Shown here one piece after another: positions 1 to 9,054 of a stretch of DNA of 9,054 bases (positions within the stretch are counted from its first letter, which is position 1; each line of letters begins with the position of its first letter). The translations under genes were made by a program, and so were the position numbers. The stretch comes from a virus. Its lineage: Duplodnaviria > Heunggongvirae > Uroviricota > Caudoviricetes. The stretch lies in the IMG/VR virus record IMGVR_UViG_2778261179_000015, positions 1 through 9,054 of that record. One strand, 5' to 3'. The notes beneath the pieces were generated by a model. That model made no database searches. It had not been told where the DNA came from and saw nothing but the letters and a program-made list of their open reading frames with translations.

Positions 1-1239
1 ATGAGCAGCGCAATTCATAGACTTAGCGACACTCTTTTACGAAAATTAAGCGGATCACCAACCACAAAAAACGCCTTTTTTAATGACGGTGGCAATCTTA
101 GCGTAAGACATTCCACCAGCGGCCTGTTAACCTGGTATTTCACTTACAGGGCCGGAACTGGCAGGCAGGTATCACCGGAACGCCTGAGACTGGGCAACTA
201 TCCCGATCTGAGCCTGAAAGCAGCCAGGGAAAAAGCGGCACAGTGTCGCGCCTGGCTGGCGGAGGGGAAAAATCCACGCCATGAGCTTAATCACACAGTG
301 CAGGAAGCGTTAGCCCCCGTGACGGTTAAGGACGCGCTCACTTACTGGCTTGAGTCGTATGCGAAGGAAAAGCGCACTGACCACGAATCACTGAAAAGCC
401 GTATCAATAAGCACATAATCAGCCAGATTGGTGCTATGCCGCTGGATAAATGCGAGCTACGCCACTGGCTGGCCTGTTTTGACCAGCTTGCTAAGCGTAA
501 TCCGGTATCAGCCGGCTTTTTGTTGCAGGTATGCAAACAGGCGCTTAAGTACTGCCGTAAACGTCGCTACGCCGTCAGTAACGTTCTTGATGATATGGTC
601 GTAGGTGATGTGGGAAAAAAAGCAGAAATAAGCGAGCGAGTGCTAACAAACAAGGAGCTTGGCGAGCTACTCCGCGCACTGGATGAAAAAATTTTCCCGC
701 CGTACTACAGCGCTTTAATTCGCCTTCTGATTGTCTTCGGATGCCGTACCACTGAGCTAAGACGCTCCGAGGTTCGGGAATGGGATTTTAAAGAAATGCT
801 CTGGACTGTGCCGAAAGAACACAGCAAAACGAAGGTAGCAATATTCAGGCCAATACCGGAAGCGATCTTGCCGTTCGTCATGAAGCTGGTGGAGCAGAAC
901 AGGCACACGGGCTTATTGCTTGGAGAACTGAAAGGGCAATCATCCGTAGCAGAGTACGGAAGAACGGCACACAGACGCATTAATCAAGCCCCCTGGTCGT
1001 TGCACGACATCCGGCACACATTTACAACCATGCTGAACGATTTAGGCGTGGATCCGCATATTGTCGAACAGCTTACTGCCCACCAGATGCCAGGAATGCA
1101 ACGCGTCTATAACCACTCCCGTTATCTCGATGCAAAGCGTGACGCTCTTAATCTATGGGTAGACCGTCTCGAGCTTCTCCAGAACAATGATGAAAAAATC
1201 GTTGTTATGACCCCGCGAATTTACCCCCAAAATTCTTGA
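1..1239 (+). CDS. int: Tyrosine integrase, P4-type (N-terminal arm-binding domain plus catalytic domain)
   Basis: 412-aa ORF. The N-terminal segment (LTWYFTYRAGTGRQVSPERLRLGNYPDLSLKAAREKAAQCRAWLAEGKNP) matches the pattern of P4-family integrase N-terminal domains. The C-terminus carries the tyrosine-recombinase motifs HDIRHTF and VYNHSRYLD with the catalytic Tyr. The ATG sits at window position 1, so upstream att/tRNA context is not visible. Confidence 0.9.
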   Translation: MSSAIHRLSDTLLRKLSGSPTTKNAFFNDGGNLSVRHSTSGLLTWYFTYRAGTGRQVSPERLRLGNYPDLSLKAAREKAAQCRAWLAEGKNPRHELNHTVQEALAPVTVKDALTYWLESYAKEKRTDHESLKSRINKHIISQIGAMPLDKCELRHWLACFDQLAKRNPVSAGFLLQVCKQALKYCRKRRYAVSNVLDDMVVGDVGKKAEISERVLTNKELGELLRALDEKIFPPYYSALIRLLIVFGCRTTELRRSEVREWDFKEMLWTVPKEHSKTKVAIFRPIPEAILPFVMKLVEQNRHTGLLLGELKGQSSVAEYGRTAHRRINQAPWSLHDIRHTFTTMLNDLGVDPHIVEQLTAHQMPGMQRVYNHSRYLDAKRDALNLWVDRLELLQNNDEKIVVMTPRIYPQNS

Positions 1240-1280
1240 CAAATTACGGCTGTTTTTTCTTTAAGAGATTACAGCCGTGA

Positions 1281-1320
1281 ATAGATCTTAGAATATCGGG
1301 GAATATCTGCAAATATCTTC
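1281..1320. repeat. Tandem 10-bp direct repeats (RAATATC core) in the int-alpA intergenic region; possible regulator binding sites
   Basis: gaatatcggg / gaatatctgc / aaatatcttc at 1291, 1301 and 1311, preceded by a degenerate copy atagatctta at 1281. The 10-bp phasing puts the sites on one helix face. They lie in a 420-bp AT-rich intergenic region. Confidence 0.35.
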
Positions 1321-1660
1321 TCTTTATATGTGTCAACTATCGAAAAAAATTGAAATGTCTTCTTCTGAACTTTTATTCTCTGTTTCTTGATTGTTCCAAC
1401 ACTTGATGGTTTATCTATTTGTTTTTAATGAGATAATTCAAGCGTAATGCCAAGTAACGACATTTTTTGTTGCATCGCTTAAAAACTCGTGACACGATTT
1501 TAAACACTAACGAGCTTCTACGAACCTTAGCGAACAAAGCCTTTAGCAAGGTTGTGTTTTTAATTTAAGAGGTGAAAAAAGAATCTAAGTAATATCCGAT
1601 CTCATATATCTACAGCTAAGAGAAAAGTTTATATACGTAATTTTTTATGTAGGTTTTTGT

Positions 1661-1870
1661 ATGCGTGAAATAAATGAAGATCGCGTAATCCGTGAGGATG
1701 AATGTCGTAAGTTAACTGGAGTGTGTCGCACTACACGCTATGAACTGGAGAAAAAAGGGAATTTCCCGTCACGCCGTAATCTGGGCGGTCGTTCTGTAGG
1801 TTGGCTGCTGTCCGAGGTTATGGAATGGGTTAAAAGCCGGGATCGCATTAATTCAGGCAAGGCAGCGTAA
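1661..1870 (+). CDS. alpA: AlpA-family transcriptional regulator / excisionase-like HTH protein
   Basis: 69-aa ORF. The sequence ECRKLTGVCRTTRYELEKKGNFPSRRNLGGRSVGWLLSEVMEWV fits the AlpA (CP4-57 regulatory protein) HTH pattern, and its position just downstream of a P4-type integrase is typical. A weak SD (agg) lies 7 nt upstream of the ATG. Confidence 0.85.
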   Translation: MREINEDRVIREDECRKLTGVCRTTRYELEKKGNFPSRRNLGGRSVGWLLSEVMEWVKSRDRINSGKAA

Positions 1871-1885
1871 AGGGGGGCATATGAC

Positions 1886-1920
1886 ACATAAAACAAAGGC
1901 GACCCGGATCAGAGGTCGCC
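1886..1920 (-). terminator. Putative intrinsic terminator for the minus-strand RHH gene
   Basis: Perfect 7-bp stem GGCGACC (1898-1904) / GGTCGCC (1914-1920) with a 9-nt loop. On the minus strand it is followed by TTTGTTTTATGTG. It sits in the gap between the convergent alpA and RHH genes. Confidence 0.45.
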
Positions 1921-2011
1921 AGTGGGAATACACTAAACATAAGCCCAGCCATCATAGCGATTTGCTGGCTGGTGGGCAATGTGATCAGTGTGCTGGCTTG
2001 CTGGTTGGCTG

Positions 2012-2185
2012 TCAGCCTTTGGGCTCGATACCGCGCTGTTGTAATTCTTTGCGGAGTATTCGTTTAATCCAAGTAGCTAATGAGGTGTCGCCGTCTGCCT
2101 TGGCTGCTTCCTCAAGTTGCGCTCTAAATTCTTCTGGTAGTCGCATTTGGTATGGTGGCGATCGTTTCTCTAATGGTGTTGACAT
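2012..2185 (-). CDS. Arc/MetJ-type ribbon-helix-helix DNA-binding protein (putative element repressor)
   Basis: Hand-translated minus-strand ORF of 57 aa: MSTPLEKRSPPYQMRLPEEFRAQLEEAAKADGDTSLATWIKRILRKELQQRGIEPKG. It is below the length cutoff of the ORF track. The segment PYQMRLPEEFRAQLEEAAKADG has the beta-strand/helix signature of Arc-family RHH proteins. SD AAGGG lies 8 nt upstream, an in-frame stop lies immediately upstream of the ATG, and the start codon abuts a palindromic operator. Confidence 0.75.
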   Translation of the reverse strand: MSTPLEKRSPPYQMRLPEEFRAQLEEAAKADGDTSLATWIKRILRKELQQRGIEPKG

Positions 2186-2225
2186 GGTAATTACCCTTAA
2201 TTACTATAGTTACATGGTAATTACC
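2182..2225. promoter_or_regulatory. Divergent promoter/operator region: two copies of the palindrome GGTAATTACC in a 14-bp direct repeat, flanking the palindrome ACTATAGT
   Basis: ACATGGTAATTACC occurs at 2182-2195 and 2212-2225, 30 bp centre to centre. Each copy contains the perfect 10-bp palindrome GGTAATTACC. ACTATAGT (2203-2210) is itself palindromic and includes a TATAGT -10-like hexamer. TTACCATT half-site repeats follow at 2221-2240. The region lies between the RHH gene start and the downstream + operon. Confidence 0.55.
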
Positions 2226-2321
2226 ATTGTACTTACCATTACACAAAAAACAACGCCCCGCACTGTAGGAGCAGTAACGGGGCGTCTAACCACCAACGAT
2301 AGCAGAAGTATCGAGGTCGCT

Positions 2322-2525
2322 ATGAGAAATCATACCACACACCCGCAAGGGCGGGATTCGCACAACCTGAATAAATACATCTGGCGTTTTATCGCCCTGA
2401 GCACGGCACAACCGCGCGTGATTACCATTGAGGCCAGCAGCGAACAGGAAGCACGCCAGCAATCCCCGGCTGGCTGCGTGATGGTATTCGCCGCCCGTAT
2501 TCGTCAGGGGGTATGCCATGCCTGA
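2322..2525 (+). CDS. Small protein, possibly Icd-like (host cell division inhibitor family); first gene of the early/replication operon
   Basis: 68-aa ORF taken from the in-frame ATG at 2322 inside the 1881-2525 ORF-track entry. SD GAGG lies 5 nt upstream. Its stop overlaps the next start (ATGCCTGA). The family assignment is a recollection of small proteins annotated Icd-like beside alpA in P4-like prophages and was not verified. Confidence 0.45.
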   Translation: MRNHTTHPQGRDSHNLNKYIWRFIALSTAQPRVITIEASSEQEARQQSPAGCVMVFAARIRQGVCHA

Positions 2526-2838
2526 TATGTCAAATTACCAGTACCTGATTAATCCGCATTTTAACTGTGAGCATGATATTGCTAAAAAGGTTTATTCCGC
2601 TGCGGATGGGGCTACTGACAATATATCAATGGCTGTTGCGTCAATTGGTAGCCTGATGTGGCATGCGTCAGAAAATAAGGACTATGACGAAAAGGCTATG
2701 CGCATTGATATGGGTAATATCGGTTTGTTACTGGCAATGCTTGGGCAGTTTGATATTTCGTTACGGTGCACCATTGAAAATGCCACAGATGCATTAAATG
2801 CCATAAAGAAAGCGAATACTGATTCAAATCGGGGATAA
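2518..2838 (+). CDS. Hypothetical protein (106 aa), function unknown
   Basis: Strong SD AGGGGG 6 nt upstream. Translationally coupled to the upstream gene by an 8-nt overlap. No recognisable motif. Confidence 0.6.
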   Translation: MPDMSNYQYLINPHFNCEHDIAKKVYSAADGATDNISMAVASIGSLMWHASENKDYDEKAMRIDMGNIGLLLAMLGQFDISLRCTIENATDALNAIKKANTDSNRG

Positions 2839-2844
2839 ATAATC

Positions 2845-3144
2845 ATGAGAACATATTTATCTGGCTTGACTGCCAGCGGTTATGCACACCCCAAAATTAT
2901 CCCCGGCGCTATTTATCTGGATAAGAACGGTAACAGAGTAACGGTAAAAGAACTGATGTTTGACCGTGTGTATTTTATTCGTGATGGCTATTCATTTCAT
3001 AGTTCGCTGAACGTGGAGATCTTTATTAGCAGATTCAGGCGGGAAATCCCGCTTTCCAGAAATAACCATGTGTCACGTGTGGATGTGGATAAAAAACTAC
3101 AGGAACTGAAAAACATGATTGCCGCGTGGAGAGAGCAGAAATGA
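2845..3144 (+). CDS. Hypothetical protein (99 aa), function unknown
   Basis: SD GGGGA upstream. Its stop overlaps the replication gene start in an ATGA arrangement. No recognisable motif. Confidence 0.6.
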   Translation: MRTYLSGLTASGYAHPKIIPGAIYLDKNGNRVTVKELMFDRVYFIRDGYSFHSSLNVEIFISRFRREIPLSRNNHVSRVDVDKKLQELKNMIAAWREQK

Positions 3145-5264
3145 AAAAAGCGCCAAATTTAAAACACCAGCCGCGTGACAAAATGACGGAAGTCATCATT
3201 TTTGCGGGTAGTGATGCGTGGGCACATGCGAAACAGTGGCAGGAACAGGACGGGCGACTGGCTGGCGATAACGTGCCACCTGTCTGGCTTGGAGAGCAAC
3301 AACTTGCCGAACTGGACAACCTGCAAATCGTACCGGACGGACGCTATCGCGTGCGTCTCTATCAGGCGGGGTTATTGCGTCCGGGGCTTGTTAATACCAT
3401 CGGGCAGAAACTGGCAGTGGCAGGTGTCAGGGATGCTGATTATTACCCTGAAGGAATGCACAGCCAGAAACGGGAGAACTGGCGCGAATATCTGGAACGT
3501 GAACGGGCAGAGCAGGCGGAAAAGAAAAAGGTAGTTGAACTGCCTGTAAAGAAAAAAGAGCCATGCTATCAGGATGATGAATTAAAGCCCCGCGTTGAAA
3601 GTCGCGTCGATGGTGTTTTCTGGGTAACGCCCAAAGTGGATAAGCAGTCAGGCGAAATTATCCGGCCTGAGACGTGGTTATGTTCTCCGCTTGAACTACT
3701 GGGAACGGGGACGATCGGTAAAGAACATTACCGCGTGATGCGCTGGAAAAAATCAGCAAACCATGAAGTCATCACAATGGCGATCCCGTGTGGTGGCATT
3801 GGCGACCGTGACGGCTGGCGGTTACTTAAAGATCACGGGCTGAACGTGACAACCAACGGCAAATACAGGGCAATCCTGGCGGACTGGATGCAGTTAAGCG
3901 GAAGCCATGAGGAATGGCAGTTAAGCACAACAACGGGCTGGCATTTTGGCGCGTACATCATGCCGGACGGTTCGATCATTGGTGATTCTGAAAAACCGAT
4001 CCTGTTTACCGGAAAAAGCGCCGCGATTAACGGTTATTCCGTGGCGGGTACGGCGGAGGGCTGGCGCGAGAGTGTGGCGCGGCTGGCTGGCGGTAATGCC
4101 TCAATGATGCTGGGTGTGGCAACGTCACTGGCAGCGCCTTTAATTGGCCTTGTGGGTGCTGACGGCTTCGGGGTGCATCTTTTCGAACAGTCATCGGCAG
4201 GTAAGACCACCACGCAGAACATCGCATCAAGTTTATGGGGAGAGCCGGACGCACAACGGCTTACCTGGTACGGAACGGCGTTAGGTATCGCCAACGAGGC
4301 AGAGGCGCACAACGACGGGCTGTTACCCCTGGATGAAATAGGCCAGGCCGGAAACGCGCGGGAGGTGTCCACGTCAGCCTATACGTTGTTTAACGGCTCC
4401 GGGAAATTACAGGGGGCGAAGGACGGCGGCAACCGGGAGATAAAACACTGGCGCACGGTGGCAATCAGCACCGGAGAAATGGACGTTGAGACATTCCTCA
4501 AAACGGAGGGGATAAAAGTCAAAGCGGGGCAGCTTGTCCGCCTGCTTAACGTTCCGATGGAAAAAGCCACGCACTTTCACGAATACAGCACCGGAAAGGC
4601 GCACGCAGACGCGTTAAAGGATGCCTGGACAGAAAATCACGGGGCAGCGGGTCGTGAGTGGGTTAAATGGCTGGCAGGCCACCAGCAGGAGGCAAAGGAT
4701 ACGGTAAGGGAATGCCGCGAACGGTGGCGCAACCTGATACCGGAGAGCTACGGCGAGCAGGTCCACCGCGTGGGTGAGCGTTTCGCCATACTGGAGGCCG
4801 CGCTTGTGCTTTCCGGTCATGTAACTGGCTGGGCCGCGCAGGAATGCCGGGACGCAATACAGCATAACTTTAATGCCTGGGTGAAGGAGTTCGGCACGGG
4901 TAACAGGGAATTTAAACAGATGGTTGAACAGGCTGAGGCGTTTTTGTCGTCGTTCGGGTTCAGTCGATACCTTCCTTACCCAAACAGTGATGAACGTGAT
5001 TTACCGATTAAAGACCTTGCCGGATACAGAAAGGGGAGTATCAGAAATGAAGATGATGAGTTCCGTTTTTACACGTTTCCTCATGTGTTTGAGGGGGAGA
5101 TCGCACAGGGATTTAACCCGTCCCACTTTGCCCGCGCGTTGAGTGCTGCCGGAATGCTGGAAGCGGGTAACGATCGCCGTTACAAGAAAAAGGCTCTCGG
5201 CAAAATTGGGGGGAAGCAGCATGTTTTTTACGTGCTGATGTTCCAGCCTGAGGCAGAAGATTAA
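3141..5264 (+). CDS. Replication initiator, putative primase/helicase-type P-loop NTPase (Pri-Rep-like)
   Basis: About 707 aa from the ATG at 3141, with SD GGAGAG 7 nt upstream. The ORF track begins at a GTG at 3126. Walker A motif EQSSAGKTTTQN and Walker B-like motif GLLPLDEIG are present. Size, position after alpA and before an iteron array match satellite replication proteins. Confidence 0.8.
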   Translation: MKKAPNLKHQPRDKMTEVIIFAGSDAWAHAKQWQEQDGRLAGDNVPPVWLGEQQLAELDNLQIVPDGRYRVRLYQAGLLRPGLVNTIGQKLAVAGVRDADYYPEGMHSQKRENWREYLERERAEQAEKKKVVELPVKKKEPCYQDDELKPRVESRVDGVFWVTPKVDKQSGEIIRPETWLCSPLELLGTGTIGKEHYRVMRWKKSANHEVITMAIPCGGIGDRDGWRLLKDHGLNVTTNGKYRAILADWMQLSGSHEEWQLSTTTGWHFGAYIMPDGSIIGDSEKPILFTGKSAAINGYSVAGTAEGWRESVARLAGGNASMMLGVATSLAAPLIGLVGADGFGVHLFEQSSAGKTTTQNIASSLWGEPDAQRLTWYGTALGIANEAEAHNDGLLPLDEIGQAGNAREVSTSAYTLFNGSGKLQGAKDGGNREIKHWRTVAISTGEMDVETFLKTEGIKVKAGQLVRLLNVPMEKATHFHEYSTGKAHADALKDAWTENHGAAGREWVKWLAGHQQEAKDTVRECRERWRNLIPESYGEQVHRVGERFAILEAALVLSGHVTGWAAQECRDAIQHNFNAWVKEFGTGNREFKQMVEQAEAFLSSFGFSRYLPYPNSDERDLPIKDLAGYRKGSIRNEDDEFRFYTFPHVFEGEIAQGFNPSHFARALSAAGMLEAGNDRRYKKKALGKIGGKQHVFYVLMFQPEAED

Positions 5265-5287
5265 CCCCCTGTGTGAGGTGAAAAGTT

Positions 5288-5602
5288 GCGGGTTATGCGG
5301 GTTACTCTGTGTATAAGTGCATTAACTGCATGAATAAAAAGGAAATCAATAACCCGCACGTAACCCGCAAAACGGCAGTTATAACCCGCAAAAGTGCGAT
5401 TATAACCCGCAGATGAATAACAGGAAGTGACAGCAAACAGCCACGCGTAACCCGCAGAAAAAACCCCGTTTGCGGGTTATTTTGAGCATTTTGCGGGTTA
5501 CGCCACGGCTAAACAGTAAACAGTTAATTTTGTAATGTATTGATATTAAGGAATAAAAAATACTTAGCAAGCGAAGATAACCCGCTAACCCGCATAACCC
5601 GC
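5288..5602. repeat. Replication origin: array of about 12 iterons (R)TAACCCGC / GCGGGTTA(Y) flanking AT-rich segments
   Basis: GCGGGTTA orientation at 5288-5296, 5297-5305, 5472-5480 and 5493-5501. TAACCCGC orientation at 5349-5357, 5361-5368, 5381-5389, 5402-5410, 5447-5455, 5577-5585, 5586-5593 and 5594-5602. AT-rich stretches lie at 5505-5576 and 5607-5626. The array starts immediately downstream of the replication gene stop. Confidence 0.75.
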
Positions 5603-5644
5603 ACTGTTTTGTATATATATATACGAAAAATTGAGATCTGAACT

Positions 5645-5887
5645 ATGAAGGCAAACCGCAAACAACCACACTACCGCGCTATTGACCTTACAGAGCACTG
5701 GCTGAGAGTGGCGATAAAAATCATCGACCGAAACACGGGGGAAGGATATGCAAAAGCACATCCCGAACTGATAAGCGCATTCATGACAACGGCAGCTGCA
5801 AACTTTGCCACGTTGACAGAACGGGAGATTGCCGAAGCGGAACAGGTGACAACCATCAACGTTAAAACCGGAGAGCAGACAGCATGA
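5645..5887 (+). CDS. Hypothetical protein (80 aa), function unknown; co-operonic with ssb
   Basis: ORF directly after the origin. Its stop overlaps the ssb start (ATGA at 5884-5887). No recognisable motif. Confidence 0.5.
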   Translation: MKANRKQPHYRAIDLTEHWLRVAIKIIDRNTGEGYAKAHPELISAFMTTAAANFATLTEREIAEAEQVTTINVKTGEQTA

Positions 5888-6306
5888 CAGCACAGATAGC
5901 GGCTTACGGACGGCTGGTGGCTGACCCGCAGTTAAAGACCACCAGCAAGGGTACACAAATGGCGATGGCTAGTATGGCGGTCCCCCTTCCGTGCAGCCAG
6001 GCAGATGACGGAACGGCGATGATGTGGTTATCCGTCCTGGCGTTTGGCAGACAGGCCGACGCACTGGCAAAACACCACAAAGGCGAACTGGTGAGCGTGG
6101 CGGGTAACATGCAGGTAAGCCAGTGGACAGGCCAGAACGGCGAAACGCGGCAGGGCTGGCAGGTTATCGCAGACAGCGTGATCAGTGCGCGAACAGCGCG
6201 ACCGGGCGGCAAAAAAGGCCAGCAGGGGCAGGCCACTGACGCACTGAACAGGGCAAAACAACAGTCGGGGAATGATGATCCGTACGGCGATAATATACCG
6301 TTTTAA
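5884..6306 (+). CDS. ssb: Single-stranded DNA-binding protein (SSB) homolog
   Basis: 140 aa. The OB-fold core aligns by eye with E. coli SSB (IAAYGRLVADPQLKTTSKGTQMAMASMAV and WLSVLAFGRQADALAKHHKGELVSVAGNMQVSQWTGQNGETRQGWQV). A Gly/Gln-rich linker is followed by the C-terminal tip DDPYGDNIPF, resembling the SSB acidic tail ending DDDIPF. Confidence 0.8.
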   Translation: MTAQIAAYGRLVADPQLKTTSKGTQMAMASMAVPLPCSQADDGTAMMWLSVLAFGRQADALAKHHKGELVSVAGNMQVSQWTGQNGETRQGWQVIADSVISARTARPGGKKGQQGQATDALNRAKQQSGNDDPYGDNIPF

Positions 6307-6323
6307 ATTCTGCAAACAAAAAG

Positions 6324-6352
6324 ATGCCGGAAAAAAATAGATTTTCCGGCAT
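6324..6352. terminator. Stem-loop at the end of the ssb operon (possible terminator; the T-tract is on the minus strand)
   Basis: ATGCCGGAAAA (6324-6334) pairs with TTTTCCGGCAT (6342-6352) around a 7-nt loop. The plus strand has an A-tract before and no U-tract after. The minus strand has CTTTTTGTTTG after the stem. It separates the replication module from the capsid module. Confidence 0.4.
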
Positions 6353-6517
6353 GCTACATAAATCCCGACCAAAGGAAGTAAATACATTAACACGAATTAT
6401 CAGCACTGAAGTTGTCACGGCATATTTTATACAACATTGCACTTGGTTGCATGTATTCGCATAGCAGACATCGGTAATAGAATATATTCACAATTATTTG
6501 TAATGAATGTAAAGAGG

Positions 6518-7564
6518 ATGAGTATGGTTGACTTATATTCGCCTACACAGCTTGTGCAGGTGGCTAATGCTGAAGATGTGCAAAAAAAATTAAATGCGTT
6601 GTTTACCAGTTTGTTTTTCACTCGCTCGGTAATGTTTGAATCGAGAGACATTATTCTTGATACGATCGACGATCCAAATATCCCGATCGCGGCGTTTTGC
6701 TCTCCTATGGTGGGCAGTAAAGTTTCACGAGATGAGGGATACGAATCAAAAACAATTCGTCCAGGTTATATGAAGCCGAAAAGCAGCATTGATCCAAATA
6801 AGTTAGCTGTGCGCCCTGCTGGTGTGTCACCTGAGCAATACAATGCTTTTGGGGCGCGTAATATTAAAGTTAAACAGGCGATTGTAAATCAGGCTAAAGC
6901 TATTCGTGCACGTATTGAATGGCTTGCTGTTCAGGCAATCACAACGGGGAAAAATATCATTGAGGGCGATGGTATTGAACGTTATGAGCTGGACTGGAAT
7001 ATAAAACCACAAAATATCATCACTCAGTCTGGCGGTACTGAGTGGTCAGGTAAGGATAAAGAAACTTTTGATCCAAATGATGATATTGAGAGCTACGCAG
7101 AATTTAGTGAGGGCGTCACTAATATCATCATTATGGGTGGTAATGTATGGAAGAAATACCGTTCATTCAGAGCGATAAAAGAGGCTTTGGATACCCGTCG
7201 TGGTTCTAATTCCGAACTGGAAACGGCCCTTAAAGACCTTGGTGATTCGGTGAGTTTTAAAGGGTATATGGGCGATGTTGCGATTGTTGTTTACAGCGGG
7301 CGTTATACCGACGAGGACGGAACAGAAAAACATTTCCTTGATCCTGATTTGATGGTGCTTGGCAATACGGCTCTTCAGGGGATTGTCGCCTATGGCGGTA
7401 TTCAGGATCCGGAGCTAATCCGAATGGGGCTGACTAAAGCCGAACTTGCACCGAAAAACTATATTGTGCCTGGTGATCCGGCTATTGAATATGTGCAGAC
7501 ACATTCAGCACCACAGCCAATACCGGCCCGCATCAATCGTTTTGTTACCGTTCGCATTGGCTAA
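6518..7564 (+). CDS. Major capsid protein, phage lambda gpE-like (HK97-fold family)
   Basis: About 348 aa from MSMVDLYSPTQLVQ, which parallels the lambda gpE N-terminus MSMYTT. SD AAGAGG is immediately upstream. Extended similarity to recalled lambda gpE includes ITQSGGTEWS, KEALDTRRGSNSELETALKDLG and GDVAIVVYSG. The ORF track starts earlier at 6437, probably upstream of the true start. Confidence 0.85.
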   Translation: MSMVDLYSPTQLVQVANAEDVQKKLNALFTSLFFTRSVMFESRDIILDTIDDPNIPIAAFCSPMVGSKVSRDEGYESKTIRPGYMKPKSSIDPNKLAVRPAGVSPEQYNAFGARNIKVKQAIVNQAKAIRARIEWLAVQAITTGKNIIEGDGIERYELDWNIKPQNIITQSGGTEWSGKDKETFDPNDDIESYAEFSEGVTNIIIMGGNVWKKYRSFRAIKEALDTRRGSNSELETALKDLGDSVSFKGYMGDVAIVVYSGRYTDEDGTEKHFLDPDLMVLGNTALQGIVAYGGIQDPELIRMGLTKAELAPKNYIVPGDPAIEYVQTHSAPQPIPARINRFVTVRIG

Positions 7565-7573
7565 GGGGGAGCA

Positions 7574-7915
7574 ATGGCTACTCATTACACTGAACTCATG
7601 GCTGGCACTGAAGCACTGGTGACTACGCTGGGGATATTTTCAGCTAATAAAGGGGTAATTCCTGCATTTACGCCACTGATGCAGGAAGATGCAACAGGTG
7701 CACTGGTGGTATGGGATGGTTCGAGCGTAGGTAAAGCGGTTTATGTTTCCGCTGTACAAATCGACACAGCGAAAAAAACACAGGCACAGGTTTATAAGAC
7801 AGGTGTTTTAAATGTTGATGCTCTGAACTGGCCTGAGTCTGTAAAAGAACTGTCGGCAAAGGTTGCCGCGTTTGTTGGCTCAGGTATTTCTGTTCAGCCG
7901 CTGGCTCGTGTGTAA
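7574..7915 (+). CDS. Head decoration protein, phage lambda gpD-like
   Basis: 113 aa. The segment TPLMQEDATGALVVWDGSSVGKAVYVSAVQIDTAKKTQAQVYKTGVLNVDALNWPE parallels recalled lambda gpD (TPLMLDTSSRKLVAWDG...FYKSG...LWPE). SD AGGGGGA upstream; lies 10 nt after the capsid gene stop. Confidence 0.8.
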   Translation: MATHYTELMAGTEALVTTLGIFSANKGVIPAFTPLMQEDATGALVVWDGSSVGKAVYVSAVQIDTAKKTQAQVYKTGVLNVDALNWPESVKELSAKVAAFVGSGISVQPLARV

Positions 7916-7926
7916 AGGGGGATACA

Positions 7927-8310
7927 ATGCAGAATCATTACAATGACCTTAAGCCAATTGCCGAAATGATGTATCCGGATCCAGCAGTAGAGGAATTAAA
8001 GGCTATTGCTGACAAAATGCGTTTAAGTGAACGCCTTGTTGATATGAATCAGGTGATGGAACTTACTACCCTTAGCCGTCGCACATTGCTAAACCTTGAG
8101 GCTCGCGGAGAGTTCCCCGAACGCGTACAGGTTACGGAAGGGCGTAAGGCCTGGTATTTAAGTGAAGTGATCGACTGGATAAACAATATTCCTCGATCTT
8201 CTGAATATTGCCGCGTACCTGTCCCAAAAAAGCCAGATGCGGCGCTATGCCTCAAGATTGAGCGTGTACGTCGCAATGCACGGGATGGTCGCTATAAGTT
8301 GATTGGTTGA
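7927..8310 (+). CDS. AlpA-type HTH domain protein (127 aa) with N- and C-terminal extensions; putative regulator or DNA-specificity factor
   Basis: The central segment MNQVMELTTLSRRTLLNLEARGEFPERVQVTEGRKAWYLSEVIDWINN matches the AlpA/excisionase-type HTH pattern and resembles the alpA product at 1661-1870. SD GGGGG 5 nt upstream. The gene ends about 25 bp before the cos core. Confidence 0.7.
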   Translation: MQNHYNDLKPIAEMMYPDPAVEELKAIADKMRLSERLVDMNQVMELTTLSRRTLLNLEARGEFPERVQVTEGRKAWYLSEVIDWINNIPRSSEYCRVPVPKKPDAALCLKIERVRRNARDGRYKLIG

Positions 8311-8335
8311 TGAAATTAGGGCCCGTTCTGGCTGG

Positions 8336-8400
8336 CGGGTCCTTTCCGGCGATCCGGTAGGCTACGGGGCGGCGACCTCGCGGGTTTTCGCTATTTATGA
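8336..8400. other. Lambda-type cohesive end site (cosQ-cosN), with the 12-nt cohesive-end sequence GGGCGGCGACCT at 8367-8378
   Basis: Window 8336-8366 (CGGGTCCTTTCCGGCGATCCGGTAGGCTACG) matches the recalled right end of the lambda genome (CGGGTCCTTTCCGGTGATCCGACAGGTTACG) with 4 mismatches. Window 8367-8400 (GGGCGGCGACCTCGCGGGTTTTCGCTATTTATGA) matches the first 34 nt of the lambda genome exactly. Similarity is lost downstream of 8400, in the presumptive cosB (8401-8500). Confidence 0.85.
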
Positions 8401-8511
8401 GCCTTTTTCGGGTGCTGGTGGTGGTTTTGTTGTTCGCTCTATCTCTATGAATAAAAAGGAAAAGATAAAGCCAATACACCAACCTGAAACATTACTTAAG
8501 TGGGGATATTG

Positions 8512-9054
8512 ATGAAATCGCACCTGATGAACAAAAAAAACATGGCGCAAAGCTGCCGTGTAAGTGCGACAGCGTTCGACAAGTGGGGAGTGACTCCCGT
8601 TGAACGTAAAGGCCGCGAGGCGTTTTATGATGTTGCCAGCGTAATAGACAATCGGGTTAGCAATGCAATTAACCAGATTACAGACGACAAAGGCGAGATT
8701 GATAATGATGAGCTTTTGCGAGTCAGGATCAGATTGCTGACAGCGCAGGCGGAGGCGCAGGAGCTTAAAAACGAGCGCGAACGCGGCGATGTGATTAGTA
8801 CGGAATTTTGTATATATGCGCTTTCAAAACTGGCGAGTCAGATTTCTTCAATCATGGGCAGCCTGCCGCTTACTATGCAAAGGAGCTTCCCACAGATGAC
8901 CCCCGCCATGCTGGATGGCCTGAAAAAAGAAGTTGTCAGAGCCTGTAACGCATGCACAAAACTTGATGAAAACATCCCGCGAATGCTGTCCGATTATCTG
9001 ATGGAAACTACCGGAAATGTGCCTGATAAGTTTCAGCCGGATAAAGACAAGTAA
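8512..9054 (+). CDS. terS: Terminase small subunit, phage lambda Nu1-like
   Basis: About 180 aa from the ATG at 8512, with SD GGGGA upstream. Alternative starts exist at 8527 and 8542, and the ORF track begins at a GTG at 8500. The C-terminal two thirds (RLLTAQAEAQELKNERERGDVISTEFCIYALSKLASQISSIMGSLPLTMQRSFP...LDENIPRMLSDYLMETTG) parallels recalled lambda Nu1 (RLTRAQADAQELKNARDSAEVVETAFCTFVLSRIAGEIASILDGLPLSVQRRFP...LDELIPGLLSEYIEQSG). The N-terminal DNA-binding region is more diverged. The gene lies immediately downstream of cos, as in lambda. Confidence 0.85.
   Translation: MKSHLMNKKNMAQSCRVSATAFDKWGVTPVERKGREAFYDVASVIDNRVSNAINQITDDKGEIDNDELLRVRIRLLTAQAEAQELKNERERGDVISTEFCIYALSKLASQISSIMGSLPLTMQRSFPQMTPAMLDGLKKEVVRACNACTKLDENIPRMLSDYLMETTGNVPDKFQPDKDK

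Follow-up and report, generated by a model that had tools for sequence, protein, structure and literature searches.

The stretch analysed here, 9,054 nucleotides long (positions 1 to 9,054 of IMG/VR record IMGVR_UViG_2778261179_000015; hereafter, the window), belongs to a phage satellite, a phage-inducible chromosomal island (PICI), which encodes a major capsid protein (MCP) and a head decoration, or cement, protein (Dec) of its own, related to gpE and gpD of phage lambda, respectively. Here we argue, tentatively, that these two genes could constitute a working shell module of the satellite, one that would rely on the portal, scaffold, protease and large terminase subunit (TerL) of the helper phage; we place this proposal slightly on the doubtful side of an even balance. 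The question deserves attention as the gene pair is common and strongly selected, yet the only published tests yielded no phenotype. What is contributed here is the evidence of selection, the delineation of a private satellite clade, the identification of scaffold and protease genes next to the pair in related islands and the recognition of a flaw in marker placement in the published tests, which together make the question directly testable.

The MCP matches Pfam PF03864 (Phage_cap_E) with E = 2.9e-41 over positions 4-327 of the 329 positions of the profile and PHROG 29 ('major head protein') with E = 2e-89, and it is 42% identical to lambda gpE over the full length (BLASTP, E = 2e-87). In a sequence search of the PDB, the first match is 3BQW (1e-121), followed by lambda gpE (9e-78). 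The former entry was deposited in 2008 as a 'putative capsid protein of prophage' from CFT073; its length of 351 residues and its source match c1499 (351 aa), the MCP of the island EcCICFT073, which is the only experimentally studied relative and is 54% identical to the window MCP (3BQW alignment). The AlphaFold2 model of the window MCP (predicted local distance difference test score of 83) superimposes on 3BQW and on lambda gpE (7SJ5) with template-modelling (TM) scores of 0.94 and 0.91, respectively; as modelled, the fold is a complete one of the HK97/lambda type, without truncation. A ribosome-binding site (RBS), AAGAGG, is found at 6512-6517, 6 nt upstream of ATG 6524, and the length of the protein is 346 aa both in RefSeq and in the cluster representative; for these reasons, ATG 6524 appears to be a likelier start than ATG 6518, with which the original prediction had opened the gene.

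Dec scores 56.4 bits against PF02924 (HDPD; E = 4e-15, gathering cutoff 29.1) and matches PHROG 49 ('head decoration') with E = 6e-26; its matches in the PDB are SHP of phage 21 (3.8e-16) and lambda gpD (8e-12). The identity to gpD is 38% over the 78-residue BLASTP core and 30% over the full-length alignment. As to gene order, in lambda D (5747-6079) precedes E (6135-7160), whereas in the window E comes before D. Thus, the original prediction was right on both points, the full length and lambda kinship of the two proteins, which follow from the Pfam, PHROG, PDB and BLASTP matches and, for the MCP, from the TM scores of 0.91-0.94, and the reversed order; the outcome that would have spoken against it, an assignment to unrelated families, did not materialize, as the homology searches gave the gpE and gpD families. 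The pair shares the Pfam families and folds of gpE, gpD and SHP, and, by this analogy, the cement mechanism should match that of lambda, in which trimers sit on the threefold sites and staple the E-loop and the N-arm (PMC5701804); to judge by its family membership, Dec would bind to the expanded capsid.

The differences from lambda include, besides the 42% identity of the MCP and the reversed order, changes in the E-loop and P-domain sheet of the MCP and in the ends of Dec: the satellite Dec proteins have a shorter N-terminus of their own and a C-terminal SVQPL extension, unlike gpD. Twenty MCP positions are fixed differently between satellites and phages, and 14 of these fall within only 74 of the 346 residues, namely in the E-loop (57-89) and the P-domain strands 143-157 and 309-334 (p=4e-6); the A-domain (~174-253) is the part that satellites and phages have most in common. 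The P-domain sheet, as we take it from the HK97 fold, occupies the inter-capsomer seat under the threefold. In the lambda capsid, gpD attaches at the threefold through its N-terminal strand, which is bound by the E-loop and the N-arm (PMC5701804). On this model, the satellite MCP and Dec would be a cognate pair, and such matching changes of the E-loop/P-sheet and of the Dec N-terminus would account for the constant association of the cement gene with the capsid gene.

The satellite MCPs are distant from those of known phages. In a sample of 59 sequences from satellites and phages, the identity between the two groups is 36-48%; among 437 phage records of INPHARED with a match to the window MCP, the best is 42% identical; and, in a search of 5.8 billion proteins, near-full-length identities range from 100% down to 51-52% and then continue only at 44% or less, the exceptions to this gap being partial matches and the chimera P0043. 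The split between satellite and phage MCPs was recovered in 300 of 300 neighbor-joining bootstraps without P0043; the value of only 54% first obtained with P0043 included is due to this sequence being a lambda/satellite chimera. By these comparisons, the satellite MCPs come out as a deep, satellite-exclusive clade. Recent capture of the gene from a helper is ruled out, with no INPHARED phage MCP above 42% and with the identity gap in the large protein database.

The chimera itself is found at positions 2801-3829 of a metagenome scaffold (L022); over its first ~650 nt it is a lambda-like E gene, the last 377 nt match the window MCP gene exactly, lambda-like B, C and D genes precede it, the satellite Dec gene and a gene for a second AlpA-like helix-turn-helix protein (AlpA2) follow it, and the two parts meet within 16 nt that are common to both. 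The chimera comes from a single contig of a single sample and could reflect either natural recombination between helper and satellite or an artefact of assembly. A rare variant of another kind is a 463-aa open reading frame (ORF), P0005, in which MCP and Dec are fused, with the Pfam E domain before D. In L015, the region 8002-9393, compared with window positions 6524-7915, encodes an 84% identical MCP and a 96% identical Dec, and this disparity points to a mosaic module with recombination breakpoints between or within the two genes.

Close copies of the gene pair are present in 395 of 5426 complete E. coli genomes (~7%). The curated loci (n = 19, window included) include representatives of Escherichia, Kluyvera, Superficieibacter, Cedecea, Kosakonia, Lelliottia, Edwardsiella, Salmonella and Serratia, and all 19, which lie on the near side of the identity gap, are int-alpA-primase satellites. 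The E-then-D order is found in each of them and in 78 of 80 IMG/VR loci, the two exceptions being a contig end and a Dec gene cut by an insertion sequence (IS), and this order marks the satellite clade. In five satellites that are embedded in a helper (L008, L009, L011, L014 and L016), the helper B, C/Nu3, D and E genes stand beside the satellite E and D. Both satellite genes are under strong purifying selection: in unsaturated pairs (dS 0.05-0.29), the ratio of nonsynonymous to synonymous substitution rates (dN/dS) is 0.03-0.10 for the MCP, rising to 0.16 in the EcCICFT073-type lineage, and 0.05-0.18 for Dec, the sparsest pairs excepted, as compared to ~0.07 for AlpA2 and 0.15-0.24 for the small terminase subunit (TerS), which is less tightly constrained than the MCP and Dec. 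It is hard to reconcile these data with the idea that the pair is the defunct remains of a head operon captured from a phage. The lack of a phenotype in EcCICFT073, the Dec gene cut by an IS in L030 and a few truncated MCP clusters could be quoted in its favor, but it is contradicted by dN/dS values of 0.03-0.18, full-length ORFs in 10 named genera, the conserved promoter and RBSs and the old, satellite-exclusive clade, and we regard it as scarcely credible. In L030 (6608-8069), a rare variant like P0005, the Dec gene is apparently interrupted by an insertion, the IS label having been assigned without a homology search.

The capsid operon is preceded by a region (6427-6483) that is probably its activator-dependent promoter, as predicted from the sequence. 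A promoter scan gave a match at 6456-6483, and the TTTATACAnnATTGCAC-N4-TTGCA motif, present in a single copy in the window and in a single copy per locus, is kept upstream of the MCP gene in the Escherichia, Kluyvera, Superficieibacter and Kosakonia loci of the window lineage. The AlpA2 gene closely follows the MCP and Dec genes, each of the three having a strong RBS of its own, and is conserved 3' of Dec in this lineage. Between the gene for the single-strand DNA-binding protein (SSB) and the capsid operon, at 6324-6352, there is a perfect hairpin with an 11-bp stem (ATGCCGGAAAA...TTTTCCGGCAT), the T-run of which is on the minus strand.

In sister lineages, the pair is found together with genes for scaffold-like and protease-like proteins. 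In the EcCICFT073-type islands, Dec is followed by a 137-aa ORF (L021, 2084-2497; also L003, 10018-10431), which is identified as c1501 because the supplement of PMC6092414 gives c1501 as 137 aa. This ORF matches the C-terminal scaffold part of gpC of the CFT073 helper (BLASTP, 2e-10) and positions 495-567 of the 583 positions of PHROG 53 (1e-8); by these matches, c1501 is a homologue of the scaffold, i.e., of Nu3, the gpC C-terminus. In another lineage (L010, 11409-12752; L020, 11418-13083), the gene after E and D encodes an S49 protease that resembles gpC (50% identity to the lambda protein) and ends in a Nu3-like part, and L020 contains an additional, separate Nu3-like ORF of 143 aa. The resulting order, E, D, C, is fully permuted as compared to C, D, E in lambda, and both loci still lack portal and TerL. 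The Nu3-type homology of the 137- and 143-aa ORFs becomes visible only against the C-termini of satellite and helper gpC and against PHROG profiles; plain BLASTP against lambda Nu3 gave nothing or E=12, and Pfam gave no match either for these ORFs or for the small ORF upstream of the MCP. The latter ORF (68-79 aa, phrog_3255), whose stop overlaps the MCP start, occurs in every other satellite lineage and is absent from the window lineage. The protease and scaffold genes of the sister lineages argue that the MCP is assembled and matured, since otherwise they would make no sense. In the window lineage, the position of c1501 is occupied by an AlpA-like gene, and hence this lineage would depend on the helper scaffold in any case.

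Several lines of evidence, mostly from the published work on EcCICFT073, weigh against a working shell module. When c1499 and c1500 were described as a 'putative capsid protein' and a 'head decoration protein', respectively (Fillol-Salom et al. 2018, PMC6092414), the Penades group asked whether they act like Ccm of SaPIbov5. Deletion of c1499 or c1500 left transfer by the native helper and interference with lambda unchanged, with phage 80 an island in which cat had taken the place of c1499 still reached a transfer of up to 1e6/ml, and the EcCICFT073 DNA packaged with lambda was all phage-sized (PMC6092414). Furthermore, of the post-ori genes cloned singly, only c1503 (rppA) inhibited lambda (PMC6739421). 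The proteins are thus dispensable for transfer under laboratory conditions. In addition, the window lineage is devoid of any scaffold or protease gene, and the placement of the clade-specific residues on the putative Dec-binding surface relies on a predicted monomer and on general knowledge of the HK97 fold. Elsewhere, the capsid homologue and the large capsids of PICIs are noted in a review (PMC6893505), and the MCP gene is reported to be present in 21 of 29 reference Gram-negative PICIs (GN-PICIs) and to be dispensable for transfer (PMC10111431); no later functional study of c1499/c1500 was found in the literature searched.

The force of these negative results depends, however, on how the islands were marked. 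Every one of the marked EcCICFT073 derivatives in Table 1 of PMC6092414 is either c1501::tetA or c1499::cat. If c1501 works together with c1499 and c1500, then the module was never intact where DNA size, transfer and interference were measured, and expression of single genes would not reveal a combined activity of c1499, c1500 and c1501. Since the markers sat in c1501 or c1499, a redirection of capsid size is not cleanly excluded by the published negatives; marker placement is a concrete flaw of these tests, although it does not itself show size redirection. The original prediction had proposed that the window represents either a capsid-forming satellite or a Ccm-like device for size redirection and had stated, correctly, that the sequence could not decide between the two. 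The gene pair and both hypotheses had already been raised by the field in 2018, so that the finding was accurate rather than new, and neither hypothesis has experimental support so far. The former does not apply in the published sense of a capsid-forming PICI (cf-PICI), as only MCP, Dec and TerS are encoded here; the latter is unsupported in EcCICFT073 by the deletions, the phage-sized DNA and the single-gene tests, albeit with islands marked in c1501 or c1499.

In the size redirection scenario, the satellite MCP, together with its own Dec, would co-assemble with helper gpE into a shell of a smaller triangulation (T) number, for example, with the satellite MCP at the pentons, yielding a head with room for one or two satellite genomes but not for that of the helper. 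The scenario has a precedent in cos-type staphylococcal islands (SaPIs), where an MCP homologue redirects capsid size (cited in bioRxiv 10.1101/2022.09.08.507074), and small capsids are made by PmCI172, in which an MCP homologue is encoded as well (PMC6092414). Like SaPIbov5, the window is a cos satellite with a homologue of the HK97-fold MCP of the helper, and its MCP is a possible functional analogue of Ccm, to which no sequence relationship is expected; the difference is that the small-capsid phenotype is demonstrated for Ccm, no such phenotype having been seen in the E. coli relative with lambda, and that the window adds a cognate Dec. Furthermore, c1501, with 137 aa as compared to 201 aa in Nu3, corresponds to no more of the helper scaffold than its C-terminal end. 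The same short-scaffold logic reportedly applies to CpmB of SaPIs. With the textbook values for the capacity and packaging range of lambda, our own arithmetic indicates that two ~10.1 kb copies of the island would take up ~96% of a T=4 shell scaled from lambda, and that, in a full-size head, four such copies would amount to 83% of the lambda length. Given the disruption of c1501 or c1499 in the marked derivatives, the published negative for EcCICFT073 is perhaps indecisive. Nevertheless, the EcCICFT073 DNA obtained with lambda was all phage-sized and the deletions of c1499 or c1500 brought no relief of interference; later work of the same group reports large capsids and about 3 genome copies for these PICIs (bioRxiv 10.1101/2022.09.08.507074), the window lineage has no scaffold-like gene, and there is no sequence feature that predicts the T number. 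On balance, size redirection seems unlikely.

The pair could also serve for interference or as a decoy, with the MCP and Dec poisoning the capsid assembly of certain lambdoid phages or titrating a host or phage factor without giving rise to useful capsids. Helper interference is common among PICIs, and an identity of 36-48% to the phage MCPs of the sample makes dominant-negative co-assembly possible. However, neither c1499 nor c1500 alone inhibited lambda and their deletion did not relieve interference; besides, a poison needs no cognate cement protein, and the maturation protease and scaffold in the sister lineages would be superfluous. A role of this kind appears very improbable.

A different explanation, raised in PMC10111431, is that the module is a backup copy for life inside the helper, where many satellites with this module integrate, own E and D being kept while a late gene of the helper (E or portal) is split. 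The helper-embedded 11capE-type PICIs (PMC10111431) of E. coli, represented by L014 and L016, interrupt gene E of the helper and share 97% nucleotide identity with the window over the MCP-Dec-AlpA2 module; the same type of module also occurs in satellites that interrupt the E gene of a helper in Cedecea and Kosakonia (L008, L009) or a portal gene in Edwardsiella (L011), and a helper-type E gene or its fragment is present within 8 kb in 38 of 80 IMG/VR loci. Unlike these embedded islands, which have an integrase of another clade, the window island is chromosomal (cspD/clpS), with an integrase 42% identical to theirs, and yet its module is equally constrained. Moreover, the 21 of 29 reference GN-PICIs with MCP genes have them whatever the integration site (PMC10111431), and a backup would require neither a private Dec nor a deeply diverged MCP. 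For the window, we deem this explanation distinctly unlikely.

The shell module proposed here could work as follows. Upon induction of the island by a lambdoid helper, the MCP-Dec-AlpA2 operon would be transcribed from its own conserved promoter. With the portal, scaffold and protease supplied by the helper, the satellite MCP would form procapsid shells, either by itself or together with gpE of the helper, and, upon shell expansion, trimers of the satellite Dec would clamp the satellite-type threefold sites. The island-encoded Nu1-like TerS would then read the island cos/cosB and recruit helper TerL, so that satellite concatemers are packaged, and helper connectors and tails would complete the particle. 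The satellite would thereby supply the shell, the cement and the packaging specificity, with all else coming from the helper. In this scheme, the time of expression, the use of helper parts for assembly, the presence of the two proteins in particles and the T number are our inferences; the head could be of full size, as published for EcCICFT073 with lambda, or smaller. A bolder extension, namely that classical cos PICIs are 'shell-forming' intermediates between pure pirates and cf-PICIs, in which an ancient, satellite-private module builds a satellite-specific lattice, possibly of a smaller T number, on the helper portal, and that the published lack of a phenotype reflects the disruption of c1501 or c1499, seems to us rather doubtful. 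Should the two proteins enter satellite particles, these PICIs would depend on their helpers less fully than has been assumed, classical and capsid-forming PICIs would grade into each other, and delivery vehicles based on PICIs would gain a shell open to engineering separately from the helper.

The element itself is, by its gene content, a classical, non-capsid-forming Gram-negative cos-type PICI. It combines co-directional integrase, alpA and primase/rep genes, an origin 3' of rep, a size in the range of ~10-15 kb, att repeats and a helper-type cos site, and it has no lysis or tail genes. The satellite backbone of integrase, alpA, Pri-Rep and ori recognized in the original prediction is thus confirmed by Pfam and PHROG matches and by the iterons 3' of rep. 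The ends of the island were taken from a 98%-identical E. coli locus (L001), where the island spans about 10.5 kb, is bounded by an 18-bp att repeat and resides in the chromosome with cspD/yljB on one side and clpS on the other; it ends ~1 kb past the end of the window, and this last part holds one further ORF, of 94 aa. Neither in the window (Pfam, PHROG) nor in the rest of the L001 island were genes for portal, protease, scaffold, TerL, connectors, tail or lysis found, so that the predicted lack of portal, protease and scaffold extends beyond the window and to TerL as well. The possibility that the pair belongs to an adjacent complete lambdoid prophage with normal gene order is ruled out by the att repeats and chromosomal genes that bound the island in L001 and L015. 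Nor is the island embedded in a helper: its closest whole-window relatives lie between cspD and clpS, outside helper late genes. Induction by a helper phage, replication and high-frequency transfer of such PICIs have been demonstrated for EcCICFT073 only (PMC6092414). The cf-PICIs, such as EcCIEDL933, encode MCP, protease, portal, connectors, HNH, TerS and TerL (bioRxiv 10.1101/2022.09.08.507074); the window island likewise has its own capsid protein and small terminase but lacks the protease, portal, head-tail connectors, HNH and TerL. Having only MCP, Dec and TerS, the element is ruled out as a cf-PICI.

The cos site falls inside the window, which corrects the earlier description. Positions 8367-8400 match the first 34 nt of the lambda left end, with the same arrangement in L001, and the site lies between the AlpA2 and TerS genes just as lambda cos precedes Nu1. 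The sequence downstream of 8400 diverges and, therefore, cosB of the window differs from that of lambda; a different cosB has also been reported for EcCICFT073 (PMC6739421). TerS is 35% identical to lambda Nu1 over residues 3-180, with the C-terminal, TerL-binding half better conserved. The Rpp proteins, which have a TerS-like DNA-binding domain but lack the C-terminus that binds TerL, are 144-153 aa long (PMC6739421), and an assignment of the last gene to this family is ruled out by its length of 180 aa and the alignment with Nu1 up to residue 180; in addition, a PDB search with TerS gave no RppC match at E<0.01. As TerS is a full-length Nu1 homologue, the island is to be placed among the little-studied TerS-encoding E. 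coli PICIs.

EcCICFT073 thus resembles the window in the int-alpA-primase backbone and in the same E-then-D pair, located after ori/SSB and before cos (L021). The two differ in that, in EcCICFT073, Dec is followed by the Nu3-like c1501 and not by an AlpA-like gene, a phrog_3255 ORF, missing from the window, precedes the MCP, and a 144-aa RppA is encoded instead of the full-length Nu1-like TerS; the window has the DUF927 primase and the cspD/clpS site, whereas EcCICFT073 is inserted next to phoQ.

Features of the window and, in the last row, of related loci (positions refer to the window unless a locus is named)
Feature	Position	Strand	Evidence or remarks
Tyrosine integrase of the satellite	1..1239	+	Pfam Phage_integrase 1.6e-17, Arm-DNA-bind_3 1.2e-16
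AlpA regulator, PICI hallmark	1661..1870	+	Pfam Phage_AlpA 2.9e-16
DUF4222 gene	2845-3144	+	directly before pri-rep
DUF927 primase/replication initiator (pri-rep)	3141..5264	+	Pfam DUF927 2.5e-48; PHROG 1139 'DNA primase' 1.9e-181
Replication origin (ori)	5286..5633	no strand	>12 TAACCCGCA/TGCGGGTTA iterons in both orientations; AT-rich palindrome 5602-5633
phrog_1231 gene	5645-5887	+	precedes SSB
SSB	5884..6306	+	Pfam SSB 1.7e-15; PHROG 44
Promoter-like region of the capsid operon	6427..6483	+	motif TTTATACAnnATTGCAC-N4-TTGCA, then TTCGCA-16-TAGAAT
Satellite MCP, lambda gpE family, 346 aa	6524..7564	+	Pfam, PHROG, BLASTP and PDB matches, AlphaFold2 model
Satellite Dec, lambda gpD/phage 21 SHP family, 113 aa	7574..7915	+	
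AlpA2, second AlpA-like helix-turn-helix protein	7927..8310	+	Pfam Phage_AlpA 1.3e-08; PHROG 2790 2.4e-48
cos site	8367..8400	+	exact lambda cosN (GGGCGGCGACCT) and 22 more bases of the lambda left end
Nu1-like TerS, full-length, 180 aa	8512..9054	+	Pfam Phage_Nu1 1.2e-21; PHROG 57 1.9e-50
phrog_3255 ORF	L003 8396-8602; L021 463-669; also L010, L011, L017, L019, L020		

All long ORFs of the window are on the plus strand. The sole convincing minus-strand ORF is an Arc/YlcI-like ribbon-helix-helix gene (2012-2185), followed by an Icd-like ORF for a cell-division inhibitor (~2322-2525), a label taken from the annotation of the L001 homologue. The start of pri-rep was likewise adopted from the RefSeq annotation of L001, and it is in this locus that the att core AATGGTGTAGTTAATTTT is seen, ~38 nt upstream of the integrase gene. 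A repeat search of the origin yielded families D1-D6 and I1-I22, the iteron field spanning 5286-5603; as in the window, the origin is directly 3' of pri-rep in published PICIs (PMC6092414).

Beyond the capsid module, some related satellites carry additional genes. At the right end, L016 (10297-12013), L019 (11326-12090), L017 (12452-12604) and L014 (11958-12716) contain variable cargo of the families HEPN and DUF262, Abi_C, Hok/Gef and DUF2971, which look like defence or addiction genes. In addition, a homologue of the lambda tail assembly protein I is encoded downstream of the capsid module in L006 (12062-12661) and L019 (10367-10975).

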